From NCBI GenBank assembly GCA_963790045.1, contig CAWBMS010000010.1:57228-121227 (forward strand): DNA of 64,000 bases, read 5' to 3'. Source of the stretch: Ignavibacteriota bacterium (GTDB lineage: Bacteria > Bacteroidota > Ignavibacteria > UBA10030). Positions 4,637-64,000 of this stretch are shown piece by piece. Each line of letters opens with the position of its first letter. Position 1 is the first letter of the stretch. Under the pieces are notes generated by a model. That model saw nothing but the letters and a program-made list of their open reading frames with translations, was not told the DNA's origin and did not search any database. Made by a program: the position numbers and the translations under genes.

Positions 4637-4733
4637 TGCAATTGCTAAAATGTAATCAAAAATGATGGAATTTCAATGAGGTACGGTGGAGAAAAAAACG
4701 ATCAAATTATGATCAAGTAAATGTCATTCAAAG

Positions 4734-4765
4734 AAAATGCGATCCCAACCTCGAATCGCATTTTT
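4734..4765 (-). terminator. rho-independent terminator-like hairpin downstream of the 4853-5857 gene
   Basis: AAAATGCGAT (4734-4743) pairs with ATCGCATTTT (4755-4764) around an 11-nt loop. A/T runs on both sides allow it to work in either direction. Confidence 0.6.
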
Positions 4766-4852
4766 CCTTATTAAATCCTTTTTCCAAAGGGAAGTGTCTG
4801 ACACCTGCCCATGTTAAAAACTAAGAAAGGCGTCTGACACTTTACGTGTAAT

Positions 4853-5857
4853 TTACTCGCGCCGCCCTTCGCGTTCTTCACGCTTCGGCTCAGGTGCTGG
4901 CTTCGGTTGTTTTTCGTACCGTTGCAATAACTCCTGCCGGCGTTGCGGAGCAGCTCGTACGACACGCTGCCGCGGTTGAACGATGACCGTTGCGGGGCGG
5001 GCGTTGGGAATTGTTTGTACGCGTTCTACATGCTTTACATCGATAGAAACATTTCTGTCGCCGCGTTTAATATCGATGCGTTCATTATCGCGCTGTAATT
5101 CTGTACGGTTCGGGCGGTACACTTCAATCTGTCTGCCGCCGCCGATGTGTTCTCCTTGTGTTGTGCGAACTTCACGCACATCGAAACGATTGACGCGAAT
5201 GCCGCCGCGCTGTTCGATGATCGCACGATCGAAGCCGCGATTGATGACGACTTCGCCATGCACATCGTAGGTTCGTCCAAAATTTCCACCGCGAATAATG
5301 ACGCCGACATTGCGTTCAGGAACAAAATCTCGATAGCGGACGGCTCCGCCGAAACGAGCATAGGGAATGAAATTCCAGTAATGTGCAGGTGCATGCCATT
5401 CGGTGGTAAAACGAATTCCAACATGCATATCGAACACGGCATACGGCGGTAACGGCGCCCAGCCGACATACGCATCGTTGTTGCACCATTCTACCCACGC
5501 AGGCCCCCACGTATCATCCGGCACCCAGACCCAGCCGTAATAATCATCGCAATACCATCGTCCGTAATGATAGGTGACCCAGCCGAATGGTTCATCCGAA
5601 ACCCAGTACCAACCGTAATCATCCGTCCAAGCCCATCGTCCTAACATATAAGGACGCCAGTGAGGTTTTACGTTAAACGGACGCCAGACAACAAAGCCGG
5701 GTCGTGCTTCGATCCACTCGCCATGCGGACTGAGCGATGAATAGAAAAATCCGACATGCACGCCTTCAGGCGGTTCGGATACAGGTGCTGCTTTCGCTTG
5801 TTGATGCAGTGTGCCGATGGCGCTTATAAGTATCAATGATAAAAGAATTCGTTTCAT
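4853..5857 (-). CDS. exported W/Y/G-rich repeat protein of unknown function
   Basis: 334-aa ORF with signal peptide MKRILLSLILISAIGTLHQQAKA. Repeated aromatic motifs (GWYWVSDEPFGWVTYHYGRWYCDDYYGWVWVPDDTWGPAWVEW). Basic/charged C-terminal tail. I cannot name the family with certainty. Confidence 0.7.
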   Translation of the reverse strand: MKRILLSLILISAIGTLHQQAKAAPVSEPPEGVHVGFFYSSLSPHGEWIEARPGFVVWRPFNVKPHWRPYMLGRWAWTDDYGWYWVSDEPFGWVTYHYGRWYCDDYYGWVWVPDDTWGPAWVEWCNNDAYVGWAPLPPYAVFDMHVGIRFTTEWHAPAHYWNFIPYARFGGAVRYRDFVPERNVGVIIRGGNFGRTYDVHGEVVINRGFDRAIIEQRGGIRVNRFDVREVRTTQGEHIGGGRQIEVYRPNRTELQRDNERIDIKRGDRNVSIDVKHVERVQTIPNARPATVIVQPRQRVVRAAPQRRQELLQRYEKQPKPAPEPKREEREGRRE

Positions 5858-38298: not shown

Positions 38299-39598
38299 AT
38301 GAAACGTGTTGCATTACATACGCTAGGATGTAAATTAAATTATGCAGAAACTGCTACAATCGGAAAGCAGTTTTTGGATGAGGGCTATCAATTGGTCGAT
38401 CTTGATGAACCTTCCGATGTTGTTGTCATCAATACCTGTAGTGTTACGGAACGCGCGGATCGAGAATGCCGGCAGCTTGTGCGGCGTGCGTTGCGTCATT
38501 CCCCGAATGCGTTTGTTGCAGTGGTCGGTTGTTATTCACAGCTTCGACATCAGGAAATTGCGAATATCGAAGGTGTCGATCTTGTGTTGGGATCGAAAGA
38601 AAAATTTGATGTCTTAAAGCATCTTGGTGATTTAACGAAACGTGCTGCTGCCGAGGTCTATGTTTCGTGTGTGGAAGATTTTCATGAAACGCATCTTGCA
38701 TCATCGGCAGGATTCGAAGATCGTACGCGCGCCTTTTTAAAAATTCAAGATGGATGTGATTATCTTTGCACGTATTGTACAATTCCACAAGCAAGAGGTG
38801 CGAGTAGAAGCATAGCGCTTTCACAGATCGTTACACAGGCACAGGAAATTGCGAATCAAGGGTATCAAGAAATCGGTACTCACAGGTGTCAATGTCGGCG
38901 ATTATGGAACAGGCATCGACAGCAATCTTCTTCAATTGCTCAGGCAGTTGGTGAAGATTGACGGCATTCGACGCATTCGTATCAGTTCCATCGAGCCGAA
39001 TCTTTTGACGGATGAGTTGCTGGAATTTTGGTTCGCAGAAGAAAAGCTTTGCAAGCACTGGCACATTCCGTTACAATCCGGCTCCGATACGATTTTGAAA
39101 TCGATGCGCCGCAGATATTTGACAGATTTGTATGCGAGAAAAATTGAAACGATCAAACATGCAATTCCCTCCGCAGGCATTGGCGCTGATGTGATTGTTG
39201 GATTTCCAGGAGAAACGGAACAACGATTTGAAGAAACATACTCGTTTCTTGCCGATCAACCGATCAGCTATTTGCATGTATTCAGTTATTCGCCGCGGCC
39301 GAACACACCGGCAATGCAATTTGCTCATCAAGTATCACCACAGGAAAAATCGAAGCGAAGCGAACGATTACGACAATTAAGCGTACGAAAACGCAAAATG
39401 TTTTATCAAGGATTTGAAGAAAGAATAGTCAACGTGTTGTTTGAAACACGCCATTCAAAAGAATTAGTAACAGGATTGACAGGAGAATATGTCCATGTAA
39501 ATGTTGCGACCGCGCAGGAAATAACCAATCAATTGCTGCATGTAAAAATTTTGCATACTGCGCAAGATTCTTGCAGCGGAGTTCTCATCTCGTCGTAG
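38299..39598 (+). pseudogene. mtaB: tRNA (N6-threonylcarbamoyladenosine) methylthiotransferase MtaB / MiaB-like radical SAM enzyme; one frame break
   Basis: ORF 38299-38961 has the UPF0004 domain and radical-SAM CDYLCTYC, ending ...EIANQGYQEI. ORF 38849-39598 continues VLTGVNVGDYG...IRISSIEPN...HIPLQSGSD...FPGETE... plus a TRAM-like end. Break at GG 38875-38876, +1. Confidence 0.85.
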
Positions 39599-48531: not shown

Positions 48532-49086
48532 ATGGAACACAACAATCTTTTGCTGCAACAGCAGTGGCTTGTAATTTATACGCGAGCGCGCCACGAAAAG
48601 GTTGTGCATCAAGAGCTGAGTGAACGGGGCATTGAATCCTTCCTGCCGATGATGCGGCAGTGCCGCCAGTGGAGCGACCGCAAAAAATGGATCGATGTGC
48701 CGATGTTTTCTTCGTACCTGTTTGTCCATCCAAACCCGTTGCAGCGAGAGCAAGTGCTGAGGGTGCCTGGTGCTGTGCGATACATCATGTTCAACGGTAG
48801 AAAAGCCGTCGTTCAGGATTGCGAAATCGCATTCCTTCGCCGCGCCCAATTACAAGAAACGCAAATTGAAATAGTGCCGCAATTGTATAACAAAGAGCAG
48901 CAAGTTGTGATTACAAGCGGCGCGTTTCAAGGATTTAAAGGAAGATTGCTGCGTTCATATTCCGATGGAAGAATAGCCGTTGGTATTGAGGAAATAGGAT
49001 ATTCGATTATTATACAGAACACAAAGGAAGGTTGTTTGTCTTCAGATGCTCTTCACTCTGAAGAATCAGTAACATTAGCTTTGTAA
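48532..49086 (+). CDS. UpxY-family (NusG-like) locus-specific transcription antiterminator
   Basis: 184-aa ORF. WLVIYTRARHEKVVHQELSERGIESFLPMMRQCRQWSDRKKWIDVPMFSSYLFV is the hallmark UpxY NGN domain. KOW-like VVITSGAFQGFKGRLL follows. Confidence 0.88.
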   Translation: MEHNNLLLQQQWLVIYTRARHEKVVHQELSERGIESFLPMMRQCRQWSDRKKWIDVPMFSSYLFVHPNPLQREQVLRVPGAVRYIMFNGRKAVVQDCEIAFLRRAQLQETQIEIVPQLYNKEQQVVITSGAFQGFKGRLLRSYSDGRIAVGIEEIGYSIIIQNTKEGCLSSDALHSEESVTLAL

Positions 49087-49421: not shown

Positions 49422-49652
49422 ATGCAAACAGTAAAAATTATTAAAAACGGTGGAAGCCAGGCAATCCGATTACCACGATTGTATAGGATCAAAGGGAAAG
49501 AAGCATATATCAAGAAAGTGCCGGAAGGTATTCTTGTGATGGAAAAAAATGACCTCTGGACAGCGTTTGAAAAATGCTTAGAGGATTTTCCTGTAGACTT
49601 TTTGAAAGCGAGAAGGAAACAACGAAATCAAAAACGGCGGATCCTTGAATGA
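49422..49652 (+). CDS. vapB: type II antitoxin VapB (AbrB/SpoVT-fold)
   Basis: 76-aa ORF. MQTVKIIKNGGSQAIRLPRLYRI... is the AbrB/MazE-type swapped-hairpin N-terminus. Overlaps vapC by 4 nt (ATGA). Confidence 0.88.
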   Translation: MQTVKIIKNGGSQAIRLPRLYRIKGKEAYIKKVPEGILVMEKNDLWTAFEKCLEDFPVDFLKARRKQRNQKRRILE

Positions 49653-50047
49653 GGTATTTGCTCGATACGGATATTTGTTCCTATATCATTCGCAAACGGC
49701 CAAAAAGTCTTATTGAGAAGTTTAAAACTCTTTCACTCGGAGAGATAGGGATTTCCGTCATTACCGTATGCGAATTTGAATCAGGAATTCCAGGAAGTAA
49801 TCAACCGGAGAAATTACGGTCAGCAATAAATACATTCCTTGCGCCCTTTAGTATTATTGACTTCCAACAAACCGATGCTGTTTCTTTCGGCATCGTTGAT
49901 TCCTATCTCCAGGCGAAGGGAACACCGATTGGAGATATGGATACGATGATTGCATCCCAGGCGTTATCCCGTGGACTAATATTGGTGAGCAATAATGTTA
50001 AACATTATTCACGAGTTCCTCACTTATCGTATGAATCATGGAAATAA
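49649..50047 (+). CDS. vapC: type II toxin VapC (PIN-domain ribonuclease)
   Basis: 132-aa ORF. MRYLLDTDICSYII (first acidic residue), ...TVCEFESG..., ...IGDMDTMIASQAL (PIN acidic residues). Confidence 0.9.
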   Translation: MRYLLDTDICSYIIRKRPKSLIEKFKTLSLGEIGISVITVCEFESGIPGSNQPEKLRSAINTFLAPFSIIDFQQTDAVSFGIVDSYLQAKGTPIGDMDTMIASQALSRGLILVSNNVKHYSRVPHLSYESWK

Positions 50048-51220: not shown

Positions 51221-51955
51221 ATGACAAACAATCATAAAAACAAACTTGCGATGATCAAAGCCGTGATTGCCTATCTGCTGACATACACGGCGATTCTCGA
51301 TTTGCTGCCTGCACTGAAACGGGCGTTGACACGCCTGCAGGGCATTGCCAGTAATATCGATGATGCTGTTATCGAACAAAATAATTCTGTGGCGGGCGTG
51401 TTAGATGCGCGCGATGATGCGGAAGAAGTGCTGATCGGGCTGGCCGATGAAGTGAGTTCCGCTCTTGCCGCTTATGCCAGCGAAAATAAATTGCCGGAAG
51501 TGTTTGCGATCTGCAGCATCAAGCGCAGGAAGTTGGAAGGGATGTCCAACATCGAGTTAGTGCAGAAAGCAAAAGCGATCAACACGCTGGCAAAGCAATA
51601 TGCACAACAGATCGTGGAATTCGGCGCCACCGCAGAGAAGCTTGCGGCATTGGAGCCGGCGATTACAGCGTTCGAAGCGTCTGTCGGAAAATTTACCACC
51701 GGCTTGGATACACGCTCGGGCGCCGTTTCATCACTCAAAACGATGTTCCGTCAGGCGGATGAGGAACTGAAAGAGCGGATGGACGAGATCGTGAATAACA
51801 TCAAAGACAAGGAGCCGCAATTTTTCGTCGGCTACAAAACGGCGCGTGTGATACACGATATGGGCGGCGGGCATGGAGGAAGTGGAACAGGCGGCACGAC
51901 ACCTCCAACGGATACACCGAAGACACCGCCGACAACGGGCGGAACGCCGAAGTAA
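51221..51955 (+). CDS. hypothetical protein, predicted all-helical with G/T/P-rich C-terminal tail
   Basis: 244-aa ORF with AGGTGAGGG 6-8 nt upstream of the ATG. Tail reads GGGHGGSGTGGTTPPTDTPKTPPTTGGTPK. No family recognised. Noticeably more GC-rich than its surroundings (by eye). Confidence 0.6.
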   Translation: MTNNHKNKLAMIKAVIAYLLTYTAILDLLPALKRALTRLQGIASNIDDAVIEQNNSVAGVLDARDDAEEVLIGLADEVSSALAAYASENKLPEVFAICSIKRRKLEGMSNIELVQKAKAINTLAKQYAQQIVEFGATAEKLAALEPAITAFEASVGKFTTGLDTRSGAVSSLKTMFRQADEELKERMDEIVNNIKDKEPQFFVGYKTARVIHDMGGGHGGSGTGGTTPPTDTPKTPPTTGGTPK

Positions 51956-51979: not shown

Positions 51980-52015
51980 AAGCGGGCGGGAAGTTTTCCC
52001 GCCCGCTTAATTTTT
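51980..52015 (+). terminator. strong rho-independent terminator
   Basis: AAGCGGGCGGGA (51980-51991) pairs with TCCCGCCCGCTT (51997-52008), then AATTTTT. Confidence 0.88.
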
Positions 52016-52152
52016 AAGAGTGGCGGCGGGGTTGGGCATAGAATAAAAAGGAAAATTGTTTTACCTTTATTCATACAAAAAATTTCTGTTGTTGTCTGTA
52101 TTTATTAAAGAGTTTGTTGTAAATTATTTATCATACAATTGAGAACTAACAA

Positions 52153-52197
52153 ATGAAAGTTGTGATTTTAGCAGGCGGATTGGGAATATCGTTGTAA
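52153..52197 (+). pseudogene. 14-codon relic of a sugar-1-phosphate nucleotidyltransferase gene (RfbF/RmlA-like N-terminus)
   Basis: ATG 52153: MKVVILAGGLGISL*. MKVVILAGGLG is the canonical N-terminus/G-x-G-x-R-L loop start of glucose-1-phosphate cytidylyl/thymidylyltransferases. The reading frame dies where the composition switches to AT-rich. Confidence 0.55.
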
Positions 52198-52281
52198 TTC
52201 AACGAACAGATAAAATACACAGTAAATAGACAACTTTAATTGAAAAATTGGTCAGATTAATTTTATATATGTATCGTTAAA

Positions 52282-52761
52282 ATGAAGAAAATGTTGAAAC
52301 CCAAATATTTAGTATTTGATGTTGATGGAGTTATGACTACGGGACAATTTTTATATTCAAAGAACGGAAAAGAATATAAAATATTTGGTCCACATGATAA
52401 CGATGGCATTAAACTCCTTAAAAATAAAATTAAGATTATATTTATAACTGCCGATAAAAGGGGATATCCAATAACTAAAAAACGTATTGTCGATGATATG
52501 AAGCAACAACTCTATGTTGTTGGCGAAGATGAACGCTATGAATTTATAAAAAATGGATATGGATTCAAAAACACTATTTATATGGGGGATGGTATCCATG
52601 ATGTAGAGATTTTAAAAGAATGTCTTTTTTCAATTTCTCCCCAAAATGCCCGAAAAGAAACAAAGAAGGTTGTGCATTATGTTACACCTTCGAAATCAGC
52701 TGAGGGAGCGGTCTTGGATGCCTGTTTGAAAATTGATTCTTTGTTTTTCAAAGGAAAATAA
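52282..52761 (+). CDS. KdsC-family HAD-superfamily sugar-phosphate phosphatase
   Basis: 159-aa ORF. Nucleophile motif LVFDVDGVMTTG, ...NDGIKLL..., YMGDGIHDVEIL, GEGAVLDACLKI-type end as in KDO-8-P / KDN-9-P phosphatases. Confidence 0.82.
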   Translation: MKKMLKPKYLVFDVDGVMTTGQFLYSKNGKEYKIFGPHDNDGIKLLKNKIKIIFITADKRGYPITKKRIVDDMKQQLYVVGEDERYEFIKNGYGFKNTIYMGDGIHDVEILKECLFSISPQNARKETKKVVHYVTPSKSAEGAVLDACLKIDSLFFKGK

Positions 52762-53316
52762 ATGTATCAGCAGTACAGGTCAAAAATTCTTGAAGAGATA
52801 GATTTTGTTCTTTCTGCAGTCAATGAAAGGGATATTGATGTTCTCATTGATGCAATTCTTATAGCCAAAAAGATCGTAGTCTGTGGTGCAGGCAGGGTTG
52901 GAATGGCAATTAGAGGGTTTGGAATGCGCCTTGGTCATCTTGGATTCAATGCGTATACGCTTGGGGATTCGACTGTTCCGGCTATTGCGAAGGATGACCT
53001 TTTAATTGTTGCTTCTGGATCTGGTGAAACACAAACCATCTATGATATTGCACTATTAGGAAAAAATAACGGCTCACACATCGCCCTCTTGACAGGTAAT
53101 AGAGATTCACGTATTGGAAAATTAGCTGGCATCATAATAGAAATGAAAGCCCCTTCTAAGACAAAATCAGTTGAAGGATTTTCCTCGATTCAACCAATGA
53201 CAACTCTTAATGAACAGTGTCTAGGATTATTGTTTGATACGATAGTTTTAATATTAATGGAAAAAACAAAAGAAACTCATGATACAATGTGGGCACGCCA
53301 TAGTAATTTAGAATAG
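52762..53316 (+). CDS. SIS-domain sugar-phosphate isomerase, 6-phospho-3-hexuloisomerase (PHI)-like
   Basis: 184-aa ORF. VVCGAGRVGMAIRGFGMRLGHLGFNAY...LLIVASGSGETQT...IQPMTTLNEQC. Starts the base after the upstream stop. Confidence 0.8.
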   Translation: MYQQYRSKILEEIDFVLSAVNERDIDVLIDAILIAKKIVVCGAGRVGMAIRGFGMRLGHLGFNAYTLGDSTVPAIAKDDLLIVASGSGETQTIYDIALLGKNNGSHIALLTGNRDSRIGKLAGIIIEMKAPSKTKSVEGFSSIQPMTTLNEQCLGLLFDTIVLILMEKTKETHDTMWARHSNLE

Positions 53317-53324
53317 GGTTGATA

Positions 53325-54005
53325 ATGAACAAAACTTATAAAATATCGGCGTCGTTGATTTGTGCAAATATCCTTAATCTGGAATCAGAAATAAAAAAGA
53401 TAGAAGCCGGAGGTTGTGATTATATTCATATTGATGTTATGGATGGAGTTTTTGTACCTCGTCTGGGAATGTATCCAGAGATTGTGTCGGCAGTTCGGCG
53501 AATCACATCCCTTCCTATGGATGTTCACCTGATGATTGCTGATGCGGAAAAATATATTAACGTCTTTGTCGATGCTGGAGCGAATATTATTACCGTTCAT
53601 CCAGAAGCATGTGTACATCTTCACAGAACCCTGACAGCCATTAAAAAAGCTGGAGTAAAAGCAGGTATTAGTTTGAATCATGCCACATCATTATTCGTGC
53701 TTGATTACATTCTTGATGAAGTTGATTTAATTTTACTTATGGCAATTAATCCAGGAATCGTTGGACATAAACTTATACCTAAAGCGATAGAAAAAATATC
53801 ACAATTAAAACAAAAAATTGGTGAAGATAATAAAGATATGATCATCGAAGTCGATGGCGGGGTCACCTTTGAGACTGCTCCCCAAATGTTGGAAGCAGGG
53901 GCTAATATGCTTGTTTGCGGTAGCTCTACAATATTTAAACCGGATATCTCCGTTGATATTAAGATAAGCGAATTTAAAAAACATCTCTCTACATTTGGGT
54001 ATTAA
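53325..54005 (+). CDS. ribulose-phosphate 3-epimerase-family (divergent) sugar-phosphate epimerase
   Basis: ISASLICANILNLESEIKKIEAGGCDYIHIDVMDGVFVPRLGMYPE...DVHLM...EVDGG. Has the RPE TIM-barrel pattern, but DGVFVPR replaces the canonical DGHFVPN. Confidence 0.78.
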   Translation: MNKTYKISASLICANILNLESEIKKIEAGGCDYIHIDVMDGVFVPRLGMYPEIVSAVRRITSLPMDVHLMIADAEKYINVFVDAGANIITVHPEACVHLHRTLTAIKKAGVKAGISLNHATSLFVLDYILDEVDLILLMAINPGIVGHKLIPKAIEKISQLKQKIGEDNKDMIIEVDGGVTFETAPQMLEAGANMLVCGSSTIFKPDISVDIKISEFKKHLSTFGY

Positions 54006-54009
54006 TTGT

Positions 54010-55574
54010 ATGAAATATAAAGTATTAATAGCGTCAGCAGGTCTTGGACGAAGATTAAAGGGCATGTCTAAAAATGTAAATAAAGCTTTAATTTCAATTG
54101 TGGTACAAACCGGCTATATCATATATCATTGAAAAATTTAAAAATGACGTTGAATTTGTTATCCCCGTTGGCTATAAAGCTAACACTATCAAGGATTATC
54201 TTACGTTAGCTTATCCTGAAAGAAAATTTACATTTGTTGATGTAGATTTGTATGAAGGTGAGGGTTCTGGTTTGGGATACAGTATTATGCAATGTGAAAA
54301 GTATCTTCAATTACCGTTTATTTTTTCATCAAATGATACAATAGTTCTTGAACAAATTAAAGTGCCAGAAAATAATTGGATGGGTTATGCTCAAACCGAA
54401 GACAGTAATCAATATAGAAGTCTGAGAATTGAAAAAAGAAAAGTCATAGAGATTTGCCCTAAAGGTACTGAAGGAGATGTAAAGCCATACATAGGATTAG
54501 CGGGCATTTTTGACTATAAGGAATTTTGGGCTGCTATGAAAAATGGCACAAATCAAGGTTCAATAGAAATCGGTGAAAGTTATGGGCTTAAATTTTTAGT
54601 TGAAAAAGATATTGAACCTATTTCATTTACTTGGTTTGATACCGGAAATATTGATGCTTTGGAGAAGACCAGAAAATATTTTAGAAAAGATACAGATGCA
54701 AATATTCTAGAAAAAAGAAGATGAAGCAATCTGGTTCGTCAATGGAAAGGTTATCAAATTTTCAGTAGATACAAAATTTATTTCTGGCAGAGTAAATCGA
54801 TCAAAACAAATCTCAGGATTTGTTCCTGAAATTCTTGCTTCAACAGAGAACATGTATCTATACAAAAAAATAAAAGGTGAAGTGTTTTCAAAAACTCCAA
54901 CTATAAGCACATTCAAATATTTCCTTGATTGGATGGAAATGTTTTGGATAAAAAAAGATCTTGATAAAAAACAAGGTGAAGATTTTAAAACTGTTTGTAT
55001 GGATTTCTATAAAGACAAAACATATAAAAGAGTTAAACAATATTTTGCAACATTCGAGCAAATTGATAGTGAAGAAATAATTAATGGTGTTAAAATATCC
55101 AAAATATTTGATTTGCTGGACAAAGTAGATTGGAACAGTATAACTAATGGAGTTCCCGTCAGATTCCACGGTGACTTGCATTTTGAAAACATTCTAATAA
55201 ATTCAGAAGATAAAAGTCCCTTTACTTTGCTTGATTGGCGGCAAGATTTTGGTGGCATAAATGACTATGGGGATATTTACTATGATTTTGCAAAATTAAA
55301 TCATGGGTTAATTATTTCACATGAACTAATTGATAAGAATTTATTTGAAGTGAAGCAAAAACTTAATACTGTGCACTATGATTTTTTAAGGAAACAAAAC
55401 TTAGTTGAATGTGAAACATATTTCAAAGAATGGATCGAAGATAAGGGGTATGATAGCAAAAAAGTGGAATTAATGACGGCCATAATATTTCTTAATATCG
55501 CAGCATTACATCATTATCCTTATAGTTTGCTTCTATTCTATCTTGGAAAAAGCATGCTTCACAAATTAGTATAA
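54010..55574 (+). pseudogene. fused nucleotidyltransferase / APH-fold (choline-kinase/anomeric-sugar-kinase-like) kinase; two frame breaks
   Basis: ATG 54010: MKYKVLIASAGLGRRLKGMSKNVNKALISI (NTP-transferase G-loop), then +1 into ORF 54098-54724 (...YKPAISYIIEKF...SSNDTIV...FDTGN...). It then shifts +1 in A6 (54711-54716) into the frame of ORF 54852-55574, open from 54711: KKEDEAIWFVNGKVIKF...RFHGDLHFENILIN...LLDWRQDFGG...YGDIYYDFAKL. Confidence 0.72.
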
Positions 55575-55609
55575 ATTGTTGTCGCTATACATTGAAAGGA
55601 TTTCTATAT

Positions 55610-56746
55610 ATGCAAATGATTAGTCGTGATCGTTGTGCTTTCACTGGTGTAAAAGATTTAGAGCCTCTTTATTCTTTTAAACAGTTTCCTGTTTTTATGG
55701 GGTGTAGCAAGGGCAACAAGTCCGACGACTTAAAGGCAAACATGGTGTGGATGATTAGTAAAAGTTCAGGGTCAATACAACTGAGCGAATTATTGCCATT
55801 GGACATCCTATATCCAGAGTCACATGGGGCTGGATGTATAGGTGGTCTGTGGGGTAAACACCATAAATCCTTTGCAGATTTTATTTATCAATTTAATCCA
55901 TCTTCAATATTTGAAATTGGAGGAGCACATGGAATATTAGCGAATGAATATTGTAAGATGAAGAATATTCCATGGACAATATTGGAACCAAATCCTGTAC
56001 CAATATCAGGCAGCAATGCTCATTTTATTAAAGGTTTCTTTGACGAAAAATTTCAATATTCTGAACCATATGATGCAGTGGTTCATTCGCATTTATTTGA
56101 ACATATTTATGAGCCTGATAATTTCATGAATCATCTCTCCAATTTTATGGATAATGGAAAGTATTTGATTTTTTCAATCCCCAATATGCAAATTATGCTG
56201 GAACGAAAATACACTAACTGCATCAATTTTGAGCACACAATATTTCTTACGGAACCATATGTTGAATATCTGCTCGCTAAACATGCTTTCCGTCTTGTTA
56301 AAAAAGAATACTTCATGGGTGACCATAGTATTTTTTATGCTGCTATTAAAGACATTTCATTAAAGCCCAATGAACTTCCCAATGGATTATACGAAAAAAA
56401 TAAAAAACTATACAACGATTATATACTTTATCATGAAAAACTGATATCAGAGTTAAACAATAACATGCATTCAACTCATCAGAATGTTTTCTTATTTGGC
56501 GCTCATGTTTTTGCACAGTATTTAATTGGCTTTGGTTTAGATACAAGCCGTATAAACTCTATATTAGATAATGACAGCAATAAACAAGGCAAGCGGCTTT
56601 ATGGTACGTCGTTAAATGTACATTCACCCAAAAAGCTGAAAGACCAAAATTCGCCAATAGTAATTCTGAAGGCCGGTGTTTATAATGAGGAGATAAAGAA
56701 AGATATACTTGGAAATATTAATCAGAATACTGTTTTTTGGGAATAA
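55610..56746 (+). CDS. class I SAM-dependent methyltransferase of the NDP-sugar C-methyltransferase-like architecture
   Basis: SAM motif IFEIGGAHGILA, VVHSHLFEHIYEP, plus a C-terminal Rossmann-like domain (VFLFGAHVFAQYL...ILDNDSNKQGK). ATG 55610 is preferred over TTG 55592. Confidence 0.7.
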   Translation: MQMISRDRCAFTGVKDLEPLYSFKQFPVFMGCSKGNKSDDLKANMVWMISKSSGSIQLSELLPLDILYPESHGAGCIGGLWGKHHKSFADFIYQFNPSSIFEIGGAHGILANEYCKMKNIPWTILEPNPVPISGSNAHFIKGFFDEKFQYSEPYDAVVHSHLFEHIYEPDNFMNHLSNFMDNGKYLIFSIPNMQIMLERKYTNCINFEHTIFLTEPYVEYLLAKHAFRLVKKEYFMGDHSIFYAAIKDISLKPNELPNGLYEKNKKLYNDYILYHEKLISELNNNMHSTHQNVFLFGAHVFAQYLIGFGLDTSRINSILDNDSNKQGKRLYGTSLNVHSPKKLKDQNSPIVILKAGVYNEEIKKDILGNINQNTVFWE

Positions 56747-56866
56747 AAGGCCTTTCATGATCGCTTTTAGGAGTCATAAATTAGTTTTAAGGACATCTAA
56801 AAATTTTGAATATAACAAATTGATAAGAATTGTCGATTTATCATAATTGTTTTTAATATAATTTAT

Positions 56867-58087
56867 ATGCGATTTATTTTTTATAATCCTCATTCGATCT
56901 CTTGGTATAAACCACCAGTCTTTTTTCAATTACGAAGGAGAAGAAATTCTCAAAAGTATACCTACTTATTAGACTATTTTTTAAAAAAGCAAAAAGAAGT
57001 ATTCGTTTACATTGATCTCCATAAATTATCGCCGCGGCGTGGAATACGCAAATTTTTACCTCCATTTACTATGTTTTATGCCTGGGCCATTTTTAATCGT
57101 ATTAATCCATTGCATCTTAAAATAATTAAAGAAATTACTGAAATAAAAGATGACGACATAATCTTTATGTTCTTGTATGGTAATTTTACAAATCAATTTG
57201 GAGATATTTCCGATGCAAGAATAAAATTAAATAATCTTATTGGTTCAAGCAATGCTTTTAAAGTTGTCCATTTAACACATTACATGTATCATGCAAATAT
57301 TGGATCATTTAACGCTTATAATGCAAAAATAGATTTATTTGTTGCTGAAAACAACCTTTCCCGTAACAGCAAGTTTTTTCAAGCTACTTTCAGTTGGTAT
57401 AAAAAAGATGTCTATCTTCTACCCTTTGTTCCAAAAGATAAATTTAAAAGATTAAAGACGTTCAACGAAAGGAAAAACAAGGCTATTGCAACAGGATCAA
57501 TAACTTTTCCGATGGACGATGGTGTATTCCTTTCGTTTTTCGGTCATTCCATGTTGCAACCCATGCGTTCAAAGATATACGAAAACAGAAATAATTTGTA
57601 TAAATATATTGAATCAGTAATTTCTCCAATTAATGAAAAGGGAGGATTCGATACCGAACAAAAAAAATATTACAGCTATGATATTGGATTACTGTACAAT
57701 GACTATAAAATGTTTGTTGTACCTGAAGAAATTGCTGATTTACCTGGCATTGGATTTGTCGAAGGTATGAAATGTGGCTCAGTCTATATTGGATTGAGAG
57801 ATCCGATGTATCAAGATTTAGGGTTAATAGATAAAATCCATTATATAGGATATGATGGTTCGTTAAGAGACTTAATTGATAAAATTAAATATTATCAGTT
57901 CCATGAAAATGAATTAGAAATTATCGCAGAACAAGGATACCGTTTTATAACGGATAAATTTACTCCTGAAAAAGTTGCTGGAAAATTTTATCAAGATTTA
58001 GAATTATTATTAGAAGCAAAAAATAAAAATTTGCAACGGGTTGCTTCGTCATTCCTTGTGCATGAAAAATCTCAAGATCCAAAGTGA
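56867..58087 (+). CDS. putative glycosyltransferase (CgeB-like / Glyco_trans_1_2-type C-terminal domain)
   Basis: 406-aa ORF. The C-terminal third (...FVEGMKCGSVYIGLRD...YYQFHENELEIIAEQGYRFITDKFTPEKV) resembles the CgeB/DUF3880-type GT domain. The N-terminal part is unassigned. Confidence 0.5.
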   Translation: MRFIFYNPHSISWYKPPVFFQLRRRRNSQKYTYLLDYFLKKQKEVFVYIDLHKLSPRRGIRKFLPPFTMFYAWAIFNRINPLHLKIIKEITEIKDDDIIFMFLYGNFTNQFGDISDARIKLNNLIGSSNAFKVVHLTHYMYHANIGSFNAYNAKIDLFVAENNLSRNSKFFQATFSWYKKDVYLLPFVPKDKFKRLKTFNERKNKAIATGSITFPMDDGVFLSFFGHSMLQPMRSKIYENRNNLYKYIESVISPINEKGGFDTEQKKYYSYDIGLLYNDYKMFVVPEEIADLPGIGFVEGMKCGSVYIGLRDPMYQDLGLIDKIHYIGYDGSLRDLIDKIKYYQFHENELEIIAEQGYRFITDKFTPEKVAGKFYQDLELLLEAKNKNLQRVASSFLVHEKSQDPK

Positions 58088-59685
58088 TATTTAAAAAAAG
58101 CCCGTCTTCATTTTTACGAGTCCTTGAAGGCTCAACATTTCGAGCGGGAATAACAAATACCTTTCTGGGTTTCTTTTCTAAGGTGCTTAGTTATTTAACC
58201 TATGCAATTGTTGCTTATATCTTTGGAAGTCAGAGACAAACAGATATTTATTATCTTGGTTTATCTTTTTCCGGTATTTGTTCTGGAATTGTAACCATTG
58301 TAGTCATTAGCGTCTTTTCGCCGATCCTGATTAAAATAAGAATAAAGCATTCAGTTATTGAAGCACGTCAATTTGCGGGATCAGTTTTGTTGTATCTTAT
58401 GATTTTTTCTTTTGCCGTGAGTTTGCTGACCTTATTGTATCCTATTGGAACCTTTAAGTTGGTTTCTCATTTCCCAATAGAAAGCTTACAAGAAAACCGA
58501 TCCATGCTTCTTTGGTTTTCGGCAATTATATTCCTAACTATAACAACCGAATTCGGAAGGGTTTATATCCAATCAATGGGAAAATTTTCGGTGATCGCCT
58601 TGATAACCGTTGTTCAATCATCGGTTCTTGTTGTCGGAATAGTGGCAATGGCTGGACTGTTTCAGATTAATGCTCTTGTCTTATCGATGATATTTTCTTT
58701 AGCAGTGCAATGCCTATTAGTATTCATTTTTTGTTTAAAAGAAAATATTCTCCCTATCGTTTCGATGGAATGGACATTATATCATAAAGAACTTGTTAAG
58801 GTTTCGACTCCGCTTGTTTTTGCCCATATTGTCACTTTGTTTGCAGGTTACTATCTGGATTATAGTGCTTCTGGACTTTCAGCGGGGATATTAACGGGAA
58901 TAGTCTTTGCACAGCGGCTATACATGCTGCCTGTATTGGTACTTTTCAATCCAGTTCTTGAAATTATCAACACAAAATTTTCTGAATATTTTCATCAAGA
59001 TGGCAATCTTCTGCAAAATAAATTCATAGAAGCACAAAGAATATTTTTCTTTTTCTTAACTCCAGTTATGGTGTTATTCATTTTATTTCGCAAAGAGCTT
59101 GTAACAATATTTTTTGTTAGGGGTTCATTTACAGATAGTGATGCATTGATAACAATTAATTGTCTTGCGATTTATTCAATAACTATAGTATCAAATTGTT
59201 TTCTTCAGATATGTTCCAGAATTTATTTTACAATGCAGAAGACCGGTTGGACATCTTTTTGGGGTTCAATCGGATTTATCATTTTGATTATAGCAACATA
59301 TGTATCGGTAAGGCGATATGGGTATTTGGGGATACCATTATCAAAGGTAAGTGTTGAGCTTTTCTATTTTATTCCTGTTGCGTTGCTTTTGGTTAGGAGA
59401 TATTTAGGGACATTACGACTTGCAGAATTATCGAAAGCATTATTAATCCTTATTGTGATATCAGTGAGTATTGGCGGATCTCTTTATTGGGTGATAACTC
59501 CATATTCAGTTTTTATACTGTCAGGCATTATTAAGTCCAGATTTGTATATACAACGATAAATTTATTCCTTATATCTATCGTTTTTGTAGTGTTATATGT
59601 TCTTATATTGCATAAAATAAAATTTAAAGAAATGATCATGATTGAAGATCGGATATCTTGTTTATGGTCGAAAGTTATTGCATGA
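58084..59685 (+). CDS. MOP-superfamily polysaccharide/oligosaccharide flippase (MurJ/Wzx-like)
   Basis: 533-aa ORF with ~14 hydrophobic segments. GTG start overlaps the upstream stop (GTGA). Confidence 0.72.
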
Positions 59686-60332
59686 GTCATATTAAAAGAA
59701 CCATCAGACTTGTGTTTGATATACTCGCCATTGCAATATCATATCTTCTTACCGTCAAGGTCTTAGACTTTGTAAAAGAGTGGATTGGGAGCATTGTGTG
59801 GTATGTACATCGGCGAAAATTTAAATATATTGGAGAAAACTCAATAATTGAGGCACCCTTTGTTATTGAGGGACATCGGAATATTACGATAGGAAAGAAT
59901 TTCGCAAGTTTTGCACGATTAAGACTTGAGGCATTCGAAAGACACCTTAACAACTGGTACACACCTGAAATAATTATTGGCGACAATGTCAGTATCAATT
60001 ATGATTGTCACATAGGATGTGTAAATAAGATCATAATTGGTGATAACGTTCTTCTCGCGAGTAAGGTATATATTTCAGATCATTCACATGGCGAAGTTTC
60101 TAATGAAGAATTAAACATCCCACCATCACTACGAAAAGTAGTTTCCAAAGGACCAGTCATTATTGAGGATTGTGTTTGGATTGGTGAATGTGCAGTAATT
60201 CTTCCAGGAGTTCACATAGGCAAGTGTGCCGTGATTGGCGCAAATGCAGTCGTTACCAAAGATGTTCCCGCTTTTTCTATTGTTGGTGGAGTACCAGCAA
60301 AAATTATTAAACAATTTAATCCTGAGGTATAA
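59682..60332 (+). CDS. hexapeptide-repeat O-acetyltransferase (LacA/WbbJ-like)
   Basis: Left-handed beta-helix repeats [41 protein letters not shown]...[35 protein letters not shown] 59682 overlaps the flippase stop (ATGA). Confidence 0.85.
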
Positions 60333-61600
60333 ATGGAGGCAGTCTTTACAATTGTTGCAAAAAATTATCTTGCACGCGCAATAACGTTGGGGGATTCAAT
60401 AAAAAAGAACAACCCGGAACTTGATTTTTTTATTTTTTTAGCAGATGAAATTGGTGATGCCGATATAGCTTCATGCAGCTATAAAGTAATTGAGGCGAAA
60501 GATATAAATATTTTATACTTCTATACAATAGCATTTCAATATAATATATTAGAGCTGTTATGGCAATTAAACCATATTGTTTTGATTATCTATTTAAAAC
60601 ATGCTCGTACAATAAAATTATTTATTTTGATCCAGATATTTATGTATTTAATAAGCTAAATATAATTTTCGAAAATTTAAATACGCATTCAATTGTAATT
60701 ACTCCTCATATTCTGACGATGGAGGAATCTTTTACAGGACATGTGAGTGAAGAAGAATTATTGTTTGTCGGAATGTATAATTTAGGATTCATTGGACTAA
60801 GAAATGATGTTACTGCGAATAGCATGTTAGTTTGGTGGAAAAATCGATTGGCCAATAAAGGATATGTCGATAAAATTGATGCTTTACATGTTGATCAAAA
60901 ATGGATGGATTTTTTGATTTGCTTTTATGATAAAGAATTACTCGTTTCACGAAATATTGGATATAATGTAGCTGTGTGGAATATTCATGAGCGATTTGTA
61001 ACATTAGAAGATTCAGAATATTATGTAGCATTAAGACACGATAAAAATACAAAATCGCCGTTGATTTTTTATCACTTTGCAGGGCTTGATCCTAAGAACA
61101 CTCAAACTGTCCATAAAGGCGCTCCGTCATCTCAATTTTTAAAATTTCCTGAGTTAATTCCACTATATGAATATTATAAAGAACACCTATTGAATAACAA
61201 CTATTATGGATATTTAAAATTGGATTATCGATATAACAAATTTGCAAATGGTTTTCCAATTATTGATTTTTATAGAAGACTATACAGATCTATAGCTCCT
61301 GATATAAAAACAATGGACGATCCTTTTCTATGTGGTAAAAATAGTTATTATGAATTATTAGAGAAAAACAACATTCTTTTTAAACCTAATAAACTGTCTG
61401 GAATAGGTGAATATGATAGCCATAAAGATTATAATGTTTCAACATCATTAAAAGTTATAGAGTTTATTTTAAAAAGTTTTAAAGCAATATTCGGAATAAG
61501 AAGATATATATTACTTCTTAAAATATTTAGAGAATATTATCGTTTTGAACGACAAGTATTTTTAATAAATAGAAGATCAATAAAGGATATATCATTATAA
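60333..61600 (+). pseudogene. putative nucleotide-diphospho-sugar glycosyltransferase; one frame break (-1 direction)
   Basis: ORF 60333-60659 (MEAVFTIVAKNYLARAITLGDSIKK...AFQYNILEL) continues in ORF 60560-61600 (AIKPYCFDYLFKT..YNKIIYFDPDIYVF...). Break at ~60556-60562. This is the only break in the window that needs a missing rather than an extra base. Confidence 0.6.
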
Positions 61601-61618
61601 TCTTTTATTTGAAATAAA

Positions 61619-62728
61619 ATGAAAATAGGTTTAGATATTCAAGATTTAGCTAGAAAAACAACAGGCATTGGAAGATACATACTAGGACTTTTAGATGGTT
61701 ATTGTTCTATTAATAAAAGAGATGAGGTTACTCTTTTAACAAAAGACAATATTAACGAGCAAAATTTTCATATTGTTACTCATTATGGTTATTCCATAAT
61801 TCAAAAGAAAAGTAGAAGTGAAACAGTGTGGGGCCAGTATCATTTAACAACATTATTAAAAAAACACAATGTTGACATTTTACATTGTCCATCAGTGCGG
61901 GCTCCAATAATACATTCCCGACCAGTCGTTTTAACAGTCCACGATGTCATATTTAAATTATTTCCTGAATATTATACAAAATGTGATCGAAATTATATGA
62001 ATATTCTGTATCGGTTAGTATTAAATTCTATAGACCTTATTATTTCAGTTTCTGAATGTACAAAAAACGATTTAATTCGATATTTTAATATTCCCGAAAA
62101 AAAAATTATAGTTGTATATAACGGAATTGATAAAAGATTTTTTGATGCAAAAAGGAGCGATGGTCGAGAAGTACTAAAAAAGATAAAATTACCAATGTCT
62201 TATATTCTTTCAGTTGGAACCTTGGAACCAAGAAAAAACATATTGAATCTTATTAAAGCGTATGAACTAATAAAGAAGCGTGGCTGTGAACAGGAATTAG
62301 TAATTGTAGGAAAACGAGGATGGTTGTATGGGGAAGTTATAAATTATATCAATAATTCCAATTTTAACTCAACTATTCATTATGTTGAACATGTGACTGA
62401 TGATGTTTTAATCCTAATATATCAATTAGCGGACCTTTTTGTATATCCATCTATTTATGAAGGTTTTGGATATCCAGTAGTTGAAGCTATGGCTTTGGGG
62501 ATACCAGTAATTATCAATAAAACACCAGCCCTAGAAGAAATAAGTAATGATGCCGCAGTTGTTGTTGATGCAAAATCACCATATGAATTATCTTGTGCTA
62601 TTGAAAAACTACTTACAGACAAATCATTGCGAGAATATTATAACAAAAGAGGTATTGCAAGGGCAAGTATGTTCTCAATGATTGAAAACGCAAAAAAAAC
62701 TTATAATATTTATAAGTCCGTAGTTTGA
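61619..62728 (+). CDS. glycosyltransferase family 4 (GT-B, group 1)
   Basis: 369-aa ORF. ...GTLEPRKNILNLIKAY... and E-x7-E region YPSIYEGFGYPVVEAMALGIPVI. Confidence 0.88.
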   Translation: MKIGLDIQDLARKTTGIGRYILGLLDGYCSINKRDEVTLLTKDNINEQNFHIVTHYGYSIIQKKSRSETVWGQYHLTTLLKKHNVDILHCPSVRAPIIHSRPVVLTVHDVIFKLFPEYYTKCDRNYMNILYRLVLNSIDLIISVSECTKNDLIRYFNIPEKKIIVVYNGIDKRFFDAKRSDGREVLKKIKLPMSYILSVGTLEPRKNILNLIKAYELIKKRGCEQELVIVGKRGWLYGEVINYINNSNFNSTIHYVEHVTDDVLILIYQLADLFVYPSIYEGFGYPVVEAMALGIPVIINKTPALEEISNDAAVVVDAKSPYELSCAIEKLLTDKSLREYYNKRGIARASMFSMIENAKKTYNIYKSVV

Positions 62729-62734
62729 TTGATA

Positions 62735-63202
62735 ATGGTCATGATAAATCAGAGGTCAAATCAAAACTATGGAAAAATCATATTATTAATTCAAATCTTG
62801 ATTGTTTTTTTACCCCTTCACAATCTATTAACTTTTCTTTTGTACAAATGTTTGGACAATTATTATTTAATAAAATCATTTGCCGCATGGAAAGAATTGA
62901 TCGCCTTTTTATTAATTGTGCTATTAATAAAAAAAATACCAAAGAGTAAATTGTATTTTCTCTTATTGGGTCTGTACGTTTATTTTATATTATTAATTGT
63001 TCGTAACTCAACTAATGTTGGGATACAATTTTTTCGAAATTATGGATATTATTTCATTCTATTTTTTATTGGTAATTCAATAGAGCTTTCTGAACAATCG
63101 ATGGAATCTATTCTTAGTTCTATAAAGTTTTCTGCGCTTTTAATCGCAATTTTTGGATTTCTTGATCTAATAATTAACTTTGGTAATATTCTTGCTTCAT
63201 GA
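62735..63202 (+). pseudogene. 3'-truncated O-antigen polymerase/ligase-like (Wzy-type) membrane protein fragment
   Basis: About 155 aa with ~5 hydrophobic segments and the very AT-rich codon usage of the island. It ends at 63202 exactly where composition and gene orientation change. Full-length Wzy-type proteins have 10-12 TM segments. Confidence 0.5.
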
Positions 63203-63219
63203 TTACTTGCAATAAGGCA

Positions 63220-63696
63220 TTATATTGCTGACTTGATAAGTTCATACCCATCAATAAAAAAGTTCCTGCCGTATCCTATAAAATTATCACAGAATTCCTT
63301 TGCATTCAGCCAATTTGTATCACTGCCATCGGTGAATACTCTTATGCCGGAAACGAGACGGTTTTTTACTATGATCAAAAGTGATTGGACAGCAAGGTCA
63401 TATGGCATTTTATCGGTCTTACAGAATTCAAAGTATTTGCCTACTTGCCACGGTTCTCTTGCCCTTTCCTGCGTTATGCACCTTGCGGATGATACACGGC
63501 AAAAAATCATCGGCTCGCAGGTTACAAATTTTCCCCTGAATGCAATATCCCGAGCTGCTCCCTTGAAATCCGATGCATCGACCACCTCAGATTTTTTAGG
63601 AAAACTTTTCCTGAGTTGAATAAAATCGGCAACGATAAGGCTCATTTCAGCCGCTTCGATTTCCTTATCACGATACCACGAATGTGAATAGCCCAT
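63220..63696 (-). CDS. hypothetical protein
   Basis: 158-aa ORF (MGYSHSWYRDKEIEAAEMSLIVADF...). No family recognised. Co-oriented with and 18 nt downstream of the RadC-like gene. Confidence 0.5.
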   Translation of the reverse strand: MGYSHSWYRDKEIEAAEMSLIVADFIQLRKSFPKKSEVVDASDFKGAARDIAFRGKFVTCEPMIFCRVSSARCITQERAREPWQVGKYFEFCKTDKMPYDLAVQSLLIIVKNRLVSGIRVFTDGSDTNWLNAKEFCDNFIGYGRNFFIDGYELIKSAI

Positions 63697-63714
63697 AATA
63701 ATGCGTTCCTTTCT

Positions 63715-64000
63715 TTATGTTTTTTCCTCTGTTTCATGGTTCAATAAACCTGCATAACTGAAAGAAAAAAAGCGTTTATCTGCATTGATGATCAAATGGT
63801 CGGTAAGTTTTATGTCGAGCATCTTGCCGACCTTGCATAAGATACCTGTAACCGATTTATCTGCTTCGCTTGGAATCAAATCACCAATCGAAAGGTGGTT
63901 GTGCACGCATATAAACGACATACAATTCGAAAGAATCAACCATTTGAAGACCTCCCGCGGACTCACGCATGTGGCGTTTAACGTGCCAATCGAGACGGTA
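63715..64000 (-). CDS. radC: RadC-like JAB/MPN-domain protein; N-terminus beyond window end
   Basis: The frame stays open upstream of the ORF-track GTG to the window edge: ...TVSIGTLNATCVSPREVFKWLILSNCMSFICVHNHLSIGDLIPSEADKSVTGILCKVGKMLDIKLTDHLIIN. This matches the RadC pattern (HNHPSG...PS.aD...T..L...DHiii) with a diverged HNHLSIG. Confidence 0.8.
   Translation of the reverse strand, partial: TVSIGTLNATCVSPREVFKWLILSNCMSFICVHNHLSIGDLIPSEADKSVTGILCKVGKMLDIKLTDHLIINADKRFFSFSYAGLLNHETEEKT

Follow-up and report, generated by a model that had tools for sequence, protein, structure and literature searches.

The 64,000-nucleotide stretch analysed here (hereafter the window; contig CAWBMS010000010.1, positions 57,228 to 121,227) comes from a contig that was assembled from a metagenome and belongs to an uncultured member of Ignavibacteriales (Bacteroidota). 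It contains four tightly packed genes followed by genes for a methyltransferase and a GT90-like transferase, and we consider it rather probable that together they form a self-contained, horizontally mobile cassette, which would turn a central ketose phosphate into an activated rare sugar, bound to a nucleotide and destined for a surface polysaccharide. The fourth gene encodes a fused nucleotidyltransferase-kinase (NTK), which on profile comparison is a distant homologue of the AfhE-type enzymes of phages over both of its domains. Moreover, one of two alternative front ends of sugar-phosphate enzymes is encoded beside NTK in every locus of a sample of 80 (one genome per species scanned for NTK).

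The first gene of the cassette (52282-52761) encodes a capless, KdsC-like phosphatase of the HAD-IIIA type with 159 residues and the motif DVDGVMT. It is followed by genes for a single-domain SIS sugar-phosphate isomerase of the 6-phospho-3-hexuloisomerase (PHI) type (52762-53316; 184 residues) and for an epimerase of the ribulose-phosphate epimerase (RPE) family (53325-54005; 226 residues from the ATG at 53325, or 228 from a TTG at 53319). NTK comes last at 54010-55574, with its nucleotidyltransferase domain at the N-terminus and an APH/ChoK-fold kinase domain at the C-terminus (about 521 residues after repair of two frame breaks). All four genes lie at the coordinates given in the preliminary description of this locus, on the plus strand, and the gaps between them are 0, 2-8 and 4 nucleotides. 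The same gene order is repeated on the independent contigs L005/L006, L016 and L022 (protein identity 55-86%) and on the SAR86 contig L034 (37-52%), and hence the arrangement is not due to chance. The L005/L006 contigs are metagenomic and encode proteins 69-86% identical to their counterparts in the window.

The family assignments made earlier from motifs (KdsC-type HAD, PHI-type SIS, RPE family, nucleotidyltransferase with APH-fold kinase) are upheld by profile scores. The HAD protein scores 68.8 bits with the KdsC family model TIGR01670, under its cutoff of 106.95, and 51.5 bits with NF007019 (cutoff 208), while its nearest solved relatives are KdsC/YrbI proteins including Aquifex AQ2171 and KdsC. 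Judged by these scores, it is a protein of the KdsC fold and subfamily but not a KdsC equivalog. The SIS protein exceeds the cutoff of the PHI model TIGR03127 (181.7 bits against 160) and aligns over its full length with YckF/HxlB of Bacillus subtilis (E = 1.6e-36), whereas the KdsD/GutQ model TIGR00393 gives 16 bits. Its exact sequence is also present on an independent Logan contig (L001). A partner of the HxlA type (3-hexulose-6-phosphate synthase, HPS) had no match among the locus genes scanned, the RPE-like protein reaches only 17.9 bits with the HPS model TIGR03128 (cutoff 200), and no HPS-like family is among the recurrent neighbours of NTK in the 80 loci. A role of the PHI protein in the ribulose monophosphate pathway is therefore ruled out, since the HPS partner is lacking.

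The RPE-like protein scores above the cutoff of the Rpe equivalog model TIGR01163 (236.2 bits against 212.6), and its nearest solved relative is RPE from potato chloroplasts (E = 1.3e-56). Alignment to 1rpx and 1tqj shows that the H/D/H/D metal and catalytic positions are retained (HxD, DVHLM and EVDGG). The substrate loops are non-canonical, with FVPR..YPE in place of FVPN and NPGIVGHK in place of NPGFGGQ, and these changes are common to the relatives found in cassettes; the copies in Lachnospiraceae cassettes have FSPS and NPGYAS. The active-site strand DGVFVPR had been described as deviating from DGHFVPN. We find that the change of N to R (VPR) is indeed unusual, but that the change of H to V affects a variable position, which is R in the RPE of plants and cyanobacteria.

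NTK possesses the nucleotidyltransferase motif LIASAGLGRRL and the kinase motifs HGDLHFENIL, DWRQDFGG and YDFAKL, and it matches the Pfam families NTP_transferase and APH. More than 2900 homologues were identified in a collection of 5.8 billion proteins. Nearly all are intact and about 520-525 residues long, which bears out the single fused polypeptide that had been proposed by bridging the two frame breaks, and the closest intact ones are 84-86% identical to the window protein. In an exhaustive search (E up to 1e-30) the family comprised at least 661 clusters at 50% identity. Its members are annotated as 'hypothetical', as 'phosphotransferase' or, loosely in JGI labels, as 'choline kinase', and no NCBIfam model covers them. 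Homologues were not found in 5,426 complete Escherichia coli genomes (blastn) or among the PLSDB plasmids (tblastn).

AlphaFold models of NTK (predicted local distance difference test score, 91) were compared with known structures by Foldseek. The N-terminal half is about equally similar to RmlA, GalU, LicC, MurU and HddC, and in profile comparisons it scores far below the cutoff of the HddC model (32.6 bits against 300); NTK likewise reaches only 20.8 bits with the MurU model NF045761 (cutoff 250). The C-terminal half has the APH/ChoK fold and is equally distant from ChoK, maltokinase, Mph and APH (template modelling score about 0.5; 10-14% identity). A profile search of PDB with the kinase half gave no sequence match. 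The domain matches only PF01636 (APH), with 22-24 bits, and the choline-kinase Pfam family has no match among 12 NTK members. The kinase thus does not cluster with LicA or other choline kinases. The earlier characterisation of the enzyme as of the AmgK/MurU or LicA/LicC type stands with regard to the pairing of a nucleotidyltransferase with an APH-fold kinase, but not with regard to membership of either family by sequence.

The 80 loci are distributed among Campylobacter concisus, Wolinella, Arcobacter, Marinomonas, Aliiglaciecola, SAR86, Prochlorococcus, Synechococcus, Chlorobium, Geobacter, Legionellales, Lachnospiraceae and Gastranaerophilales, among others. Each of them has one of two front ends beside NTK, and the two were never found together (0/80). 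Type A, to which the window belongs, is composed of the PHI-type SIS and the RPE-like gene and occurs in nine loci. The other 71 are of type B, composed of a GatZ/KbaZ-like protein (381-392 residues) and/or a cupin of the phosphomannose isomerase (PMI) type (115 residues); both genes are present in 55 loci, the cupin only in 15 and the GatZ-like gene only in one. Carriers of type B without a GatZ-like gene near NTK include Gastranaerophilales and Prochlorococcus, whereas Marinomonas colpomeniae SM2066 and Chlorobium ferrooxidans DSM 13031 have sets with both genes, a HAD gene and NTK; other cultured carriers of the cassette are Aliiglaciecola lipolytica E3 and Solidesulfovibrio aerotolerans DSM 16695. 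The GatZ-like protein was assigned by PF08013 (39.9 bits) and by a profile match to E. coli GatZ (2fiq, E = 1.3e-4), and the cupin by PF01050 and the type II PMI signature SLQxH..E. A KdsC-like HAD gene lies within about 3 kb of NTK in 63 loci, a homologue of the window methyltransferase (55592-56746) comes after NTK in 50, and a GT90/POGLUT-like homologue of the window protein at 56867-58087 comes after the methyltransferase or NTK in 19. The two latter families accompany both types of front end. This conserved synteny in all 80 loci supports the functional linkage that had been postulated for the four genes.

Type A is polyphyletic, occupying at least four separate places in the NTK tree, and the NTKs of the two types are up to 74% identical. 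We infer that analogous front ends were repeatedly swapped ahead of one activation-and-tailoring module, and because they interchange before a common set of NTK, methyltransferase and GT90-like genes, both types would lead to one shared product. A compact type B cassette is also found on the contig of Marine virus AG-345-E15 (MH319741.1, 7311-10483), where genes for a small HAD protein, a cupin, an NTK with 38% identity and a GatZ-like protein of reduced length lie among further sugar-nucleotide and glycosyltransferase-like open reading frames (ORFs). The GatZ-like gene does not seem to be a dispensable helper, as it is still attached to NTK on this viral contig. In 45 of the 80 loci, the GatZ-like gene and the cupin are separated by a gene for a highly conserved protein of 274 residues (for instance L055:8823-9647 and L042:7920-8744), which the window lacks. 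Its mean column identity is 70%, and searches of Pfam and PDB gave no relative and only a faint GT2 signal.

When phage genomes were searched with NTK (tblastn), matches were obtained in the marine viral contig, in Enterococcus phages (95% of the length aligned, at about 23% identity) and, very weakly, in more than 100 RB69-like Mosigvirus phages. Profile-profile comparison with ORF047 of Enterococcus phage 9183 covered both domains (probability 99.4%, E = 4.8e-22), as did an hhalign comparison with a 561-residue protein of Mosigvirus GADS24 (probability 96.5%, E = 8.9e-10, 382 columns). Both sides share a D-x-R motif past the catalytic loop, which takes the form DWRQ in NTK and DPRG in its phage homologues. 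The GADS24 gene is situated between an arabinose-5-phosphate isomerase gene and a small HAD-like gene, and by synteny and taxonomy we equate its product with AfhE, that is gp52:53 of RB69 (PMC13326640). According to this 2026 paper, which summarises experiments of He et al. 2026 and Mahler et al. 2025, AfhE (RB69 gp52:53, DLP3 gp82) is a bifunctional anomeric kinase of arabinose 5-phosphate (Ara5P) and uridine diphosphate (UDP)-arabinose pyrophosphorylase. As described there, a SIS isomerase (RB69 gp55, DLP3 gp83) makes Ara5P from ribulose 5-phosphate (Ru5P), the C-terminal kinase of AfhE turns arabinofuranose 5-phosphate into the 1,5-bisphosphate, the HAD protein AfhF (RB69 gp51, DLP3 gp81) removes the 5-phosphate, and the N-terminal domain of AfhE forms UDP-arabinofuranose (PMC13326640).

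The preliminary description had proposed isomerisation or epimerisation, anomeric phosphorylation, distal dephosphorylation and nucleotidylation, in that order. This list and its sequence match the order of AfhE and AfhF, and they are well supported because NTK is homologous to an enzyme of the AfhE type. The accompanying statement that no pathway of such composition had been described does not hold, since a SIS isomerase, a fusion enzyme and a HAD protein constitute the phage route to UDP-D-arabinofuranose of 2025-26 (PMC13326640).

Some further features of these phages were observed. In Escherichia phage GADS24 (OQ703618.1) the 128-residue gene that comes after the AfhE-like gene (4604-4990) is annotated as 'phosphoheptose isomerase'. 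The annotation is probably wrong, because HAD motif I (FDVDD) is found at the start of the protein and the gene is in the place expected of AfhF/gp51. In Enterococcus phage 9183 (MT939241.1, 29756-31731) a small HAD gene and then the NTK homologue are part of a nucleotide-metabolism module with thymidylate synthase-like, dUTPase, dTMP kinase and 'nucleotide sugar synthetase-like' neighbours, which hints that Enterococcus phages may carry an undescribed sugar hypermodification of DNA. ORF048 of the same phage (406 residues) is unrelated to the GatZ-like and GT90-like families.

For the cassette we propose that the PHI-type SIS and the RPE-like epimerase would reshape Ru5P, xylulose 5-phosphate (Xu5P) or fructose 6-phosphate (F6P) into one particular sugar omega-phosphate, whose anomeric hydroxyl would be phosphorylated by the C-terminal kinase domain of NTK to give the 1,omega-bisphosphate. 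The HAD phosphatase would then take off the distal phosphate, and the N-terminal nucleotidyltransferase domain would couple the sugar 1-phosphate with a nucleoside triphosphate. The resulting nucleoside diphosphate (NDP)-sugar would be modified by the methyltransferase, and its sugar moiety transferred by the GT90-like enzyme. In most other bacteria the GatZ/KbaZ-like protein and the PMI-type cupin would serve as an analogous front end to the same sugar.

The methyltransferase (55592-56746, plus strand; PF13489 and PF08484) is S-adenosylmethionine-dependent, with a C-terminal domain of the NDP-sugar C-methyltransferase type. Its sole relative in PDB is the D-mycarose 3-C-methyltransferase 4rv9 (E = 2e-4), an NDP-4-keto-sugar 3-C-methyltransferase. 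As this is the only solved relative, the protein is suggested to act on an NDP-sugar, with C- and O-methylation both possible. It is likely a tailoring enzyme of the cassette, whose coordinates in the preliminary description had ended before it. The next gene (56867-58087, plus strand) encodes a putative glycosyltransferase of 406 residues with weak matches to PF05686 and PF13524. Profile matches to POGLUT2/POGLUT1 make this GT90-like protein a candidate user of the NDP-sugar.

As to the sugar itself, a D-pentofuranose (arabinose or lyxose, including a strictly phage-like NDP-D-arabinofuranose) is a reasonable though uncertain candidate, and a hexose inverted at C4, of the tagato/talo series, is a more tentative one, with about the same weight left for some other sugar. 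RPE interconverts Ru5P and Xu5P; moreover, Ru5P corresponds to hex-3-ulose 6-phosphate without C1, and Ara5P to F6P without C1. Because of this correspondence, type A taken literally would let the PHI-like enzyme convert a pentulose 5-phosphate into Ara5P or lyxose 5-phosphate (Lyx5P), and hence yield an NDP-D-pentofuranose. Taken equally literally, type B would convert F6P to tagatose 6-phosphate (Tag6P) by the GatZ-like protein and then to talose 6-phosphate by the PMI-type cupin. That these literal products differ (Ara5P or Lyx5P against talose 6-phosphate) counts against a single cassette sugar, and a common product therefore needs either an unprecedented activity or a detour from PHI to the RPE-like enzyme and back to PHI. 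The two types would coincide if the GatZ-like protein had a new pentulose-related activity, or by way of this PHI/RPE-like detour in type A. Other points weigh against the proposal for the cassette as a whole. Two frameshifts interrupt the NTK of the window. With an identity of only about 25% between NTK and the phage enzymes, homology does not allow substrate and nucleotide to be carried over from them. Furthermore, the KdsC-like HAD and the PHI-like SIS have no specific kinship to the phage HAD and arabinose-5-phosphate isomerase, and are instead analogous recruits from the same superfamilies.

The strictest form of the pentofuranose reading is that the cassette makes NDP-D-arabinofuranose as in phages, with RPE providing Ru5P, the PHI-like SIS making Ara5P, NTK producing arabinofuranose 1,5-bisphosphate, the HAD protein releasing the 1-phosphate, and NTK again forming the NDP-sugar. 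The homology of NTK to AfhE-like enzymes and the identical list of steps agree with it, as does the score of the RPE-like protein above the RPE equivalog cutoff; in addition, PHI and arabinose-5-phosphate isomerase are both SIS proteins and would share ene-diol chemistry on homologous carbon skeletons. We nevertheless think this unlikely, given that the SIS scores as PHI and not as KdsD/GutQ (16 bits with TIGR00393), the canonical motifs VPN and GFGGQ are missing from the RPE-like protein, an extra RPE is not needed to supply Ru5P, and the majority front end includes a GatZ/KbaZ-like protein, whose sole known activity, C4 epimerisation of F6P, has no role for Ara5P. It is precisely this reported activity (PMC11907403) that argues for a tagato/talo hexose derived from F6P, by the GatZ-like protein and cupin in type B and by successive action of PHI, RPE-like enzyme and PHI in type A. 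There, PHI would shift the carbonyl of F6P to C3 to give hex-3-ulose 6-phosphate, an analogue of Ru5P, the RPE-like enzyme would invert C4, by then next to the carbonyl, and PHI would bring the carbonyl back to C2 to give Tag6P. The assignment of the GatZ-like protein (PF08013 and the 2fiq profile match) and the type II PMI signature of the cupin fit this possibility, which also accounts for a PHI without an HPS partner in a glycan locus, for an RPE-like protein nearer to RPE than to AlsE and yet altered in its substrate loops, and for front ends that are mutually exclusive, with the GatZ-like gene kept even on the marine viral contig. We regard it as possible but doubtful, because type A has no counterpart of the cupin step, so that the products match only if NTK accepts Tag6P or an extra activity is present; moreover, no RPE-family enzyme is known to use hex-3-ulose 6-phosphate, and our literature search found no tagato/talo hexose reported in the glycans of any carrier. 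The specific version in which PHI and the RPE-like protein act as a 'carbonyl-walk' 4-epimerase (F6P to hex-3-ulose 6-phosphate, to its 4-epimer and to Tag6P), convergent with the GatZ-like protein and cupin and leading to an NDP-tagato/talo sugar, we hold to be less likely still.

Two other candidates were considered and set aside. Were D-altrose 6-phosphate the common product, an aldose would have to be epimerised at C3 by aldolase-type chemistry and the SIS would have to be a 1,2-isomerase, whereas it scores as PHI. Hex-3-ulose, free or 6-phosphorylated, is improbable as the final kinase substrate, because its 6-phosphate cannot cyclise and thus offers an AfhE-like kinase no anomeric hydroxyl. 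An alternative outside sugar activation is that NTK resembles LicCA and activates choline or another small alcohol, its HAD, SIS and RPE neighbours being unrelated to this function. The JGI label 'choline kinase' of some members, the presence of LicC among the structural matches of the nucleotidyltransferase domain, and the choline kinases at the top of the Foldseek list for the kinase domain would be in line with such a role. It is very improbable, since NTK matches no choline kinase significantly in sequence, the Foldseek matches to maltokinase, Mph and APH are equally weak, and sugar-phosphate enzymes flank NTK in 80 of 80 loci; in addition, the characterised homologue AfhE uses a sugar phosphate (PMC13326640), and neither LicB nor LicD is among the window genes scanned against Pfam.

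It could also be that the cassette is dead in this genome, the NTK frameshifts being genuine and the products truncated. The NTK reading frame of the window runs through three successive frames, and alignment to an intact homologue of 1563 nucleotides on L005 (81% nucleotide and 86% protein identity) shows exactly two +1 insertions, one near 54102 and the other in an A6 run near 54709-54716. Both frame breaks of the preliminary description are thus present in this sequence. In the protein collection the intact copies reach 86% identity at best, and none attains 90%. Look-ups by exact sequence gave no independent copy of either NTK fragment, of the RPE-like protein, of the methyltransferase, of GlmS or of a MiaB-like fragment, and a 22-mer adjoining the A-run had no exact match in JGI metagenomes. 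Two other genes of the window are split in a similar way, however. A TonB-dependent receptor is divided between overlapping ORFs in different frames (7341-7979 and 7927-9861, plus strand), the former with CarboxypepD_reg and a match to positions 5-78 of the 107 in the Plug profile, the latter with the beta-barrel. A MiaB/MtaB-like radical-SAM methylthiotransferase is divided between 38299-38961 and 38849-39598 (plus strand), and the pieces cover positions 2-49 and 46-166 of the Radical_SAM profile. As one of these is a housekeeping gene and the contig was assembled from a metagenome, the NTK frame breaks are probably indel errors of the assembly. The position of one insertion in a homopolymer also speaks against genuine frameshifts, and so does the repaired protein of 521 residues, which retains 111 of 112 invariant and 170 of 172 near-invariant residues of the family. 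A dead cassette is therefore an unlikely explanation.

The accompanying gene types, namely a NusG/UpxY-like gene, a MurJ/Wzx-like flippase, a WbbJ-like acetyltransferase and a GT4 gene, are typical of a surface-polysaccharide locus. The GC content of about 0.43 drops to 0.30-0.35 at 52 kb (about 52000-64000), where the cassette and the polysaccharide genes start, and this coincidence agrees with horizontal acquisition. An ORF of 244 residues (51221-51955, plus strand) closely precedes the cassette; its C-terminus is rich in Gly, Thr and Pro, and no significant family match was obtained for it. Further upstream, between the NusG/UpxY-like gene (48532-49086) and the cassette, an ORF of 76 residues and a gene for a PIN-domain protein of 132 residues have overlapping stop and start codons (49422-50047, plus strand). 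The smaller ORF has no Pfam match, and the pair looks like an insertion of a VapBC-type toxin-antitoxin module.

The activation logic of the cassette (SIS isomerase, fused enzyme and HAD) is already described in phages, and for the bacterial cassette neither a paper, in a full-text literature search, nor a curated family was found. From its sequence relationships, we would describe it as a glycan-directed bacterial relative of the AfhE/AfhF activation module with other accessory families, two interchangeable front ends and a dedicated methyltransferase. If this is true, a widespread mobile cassette of Campylobacterota, cyanobacteria, SAR86, Chlorobia, Bacteroidota/Ignavibacteria, Clostridia and marine viruses produces a nucleotide sugar for which neither curated families nor the papers found account, and the phage DNA-arabinosylation enzyme AfhE is tied to a far larger bacterial family devoted to surface glycans. 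It would also show concretely how two analogous enzyme pairs can be exchanged time and again before one activation module, and the cassette could provide a route to rare activated sugars such as furanoses or tagato/talo hexoses. The carbonyl walk, if correct, would imply an undescribed nucleotide sugar and a new role of the PHI and RPE families in hundreds of lineages, from Prochlorococcus to Campylobacter concisus.

Several known systems resemble parts of the cassette. The GatZ/KbaZ enzymes are C4 epimerases that convert F6P to Tag6P, and the tagatose route of E. coli combines them with a phosphatase (PMC11907403). Type B cassettes similarly place a GatZ/KbaZ-like gene beside a HAD phosphatase, but their GatZ-like protein is very distant (E = 1.3e-4 to 2fiq), is absent from the window and has a predicted function. 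LicA/LicC, and in particular the fused LicCA proteins, have in common with NTK an N-terminal nucleotidyltransferase fused to an APH/ChoK-fold kinase, LicC being a structural neighbour of NTK; they differ in that the NTK kinase has no sequence kinship to choline kinases and that the partners of NTK are sugar-phosphate enzymes. In the recycling of N-acetylmuramic acid, MupP, AmgK and MurU (a HAD protein, an APH-fold anomeric kinase and a transferase) convert a sugar 6-phosphate into a UDP-sugar (PMC5371407). These three protein types are like those of the cassette, but they are separate polypeptides, the phosphatase is the first to act, no isomerase or epimerase precedes them, and NTK has no significant sequence match to them (20.8 bits against 250 with the MurU model). 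NDP-heptose synthesis (GmhA, HddA/HldE, GmhB and HddC/HldE) shares the logic of isomerase, anomeric kinase, HAD acting on a bisphosphate, and nucleotidyltransferase. HldE is likewise a kinase/transferase fusion. It had been claimed that every part of the cassette is from another family than its heptose counterpart, and we agree: there is no match to GmhA or GmhB models, the cassette having PHI in place of GmhA and a KdsC-like protein in place of GmhB, the kinase is of the APH fold instead of the GHMP or ribokinase type, and the HddC score is 32.6 bits against a cutoff of 300.

The MupP/AmgK/MurU and NDP-heptose routes are looser analogues of the cassette than the phage Afh system. In the latter a SIS isomerase, an anomeric kinase producing a 1,5-bisphosphate, a HAD phosphatase and a nucleotidyltransferase work in the order proposed here, and kinase and transferase are fused in both systems with the nucleotidyltransferase domain at the N-terminus. 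The HAD and isomerase genes adjoin the fusion gene in phages as in the cassette, and in the window they lie directly upstream. The systems differ in the isomerase, which is of the PHI type in the cassette and not of the KdsD type, and in the phosphatase, which is of the KdsC type and not of the small AfhF type. Moreover, the cassette adds an RPE-like epimerase or, in other bacteria, the GatZ-like protein and cupin, and its proposed product would go to polysaccharide, whereas that of the phages goes to DNA.

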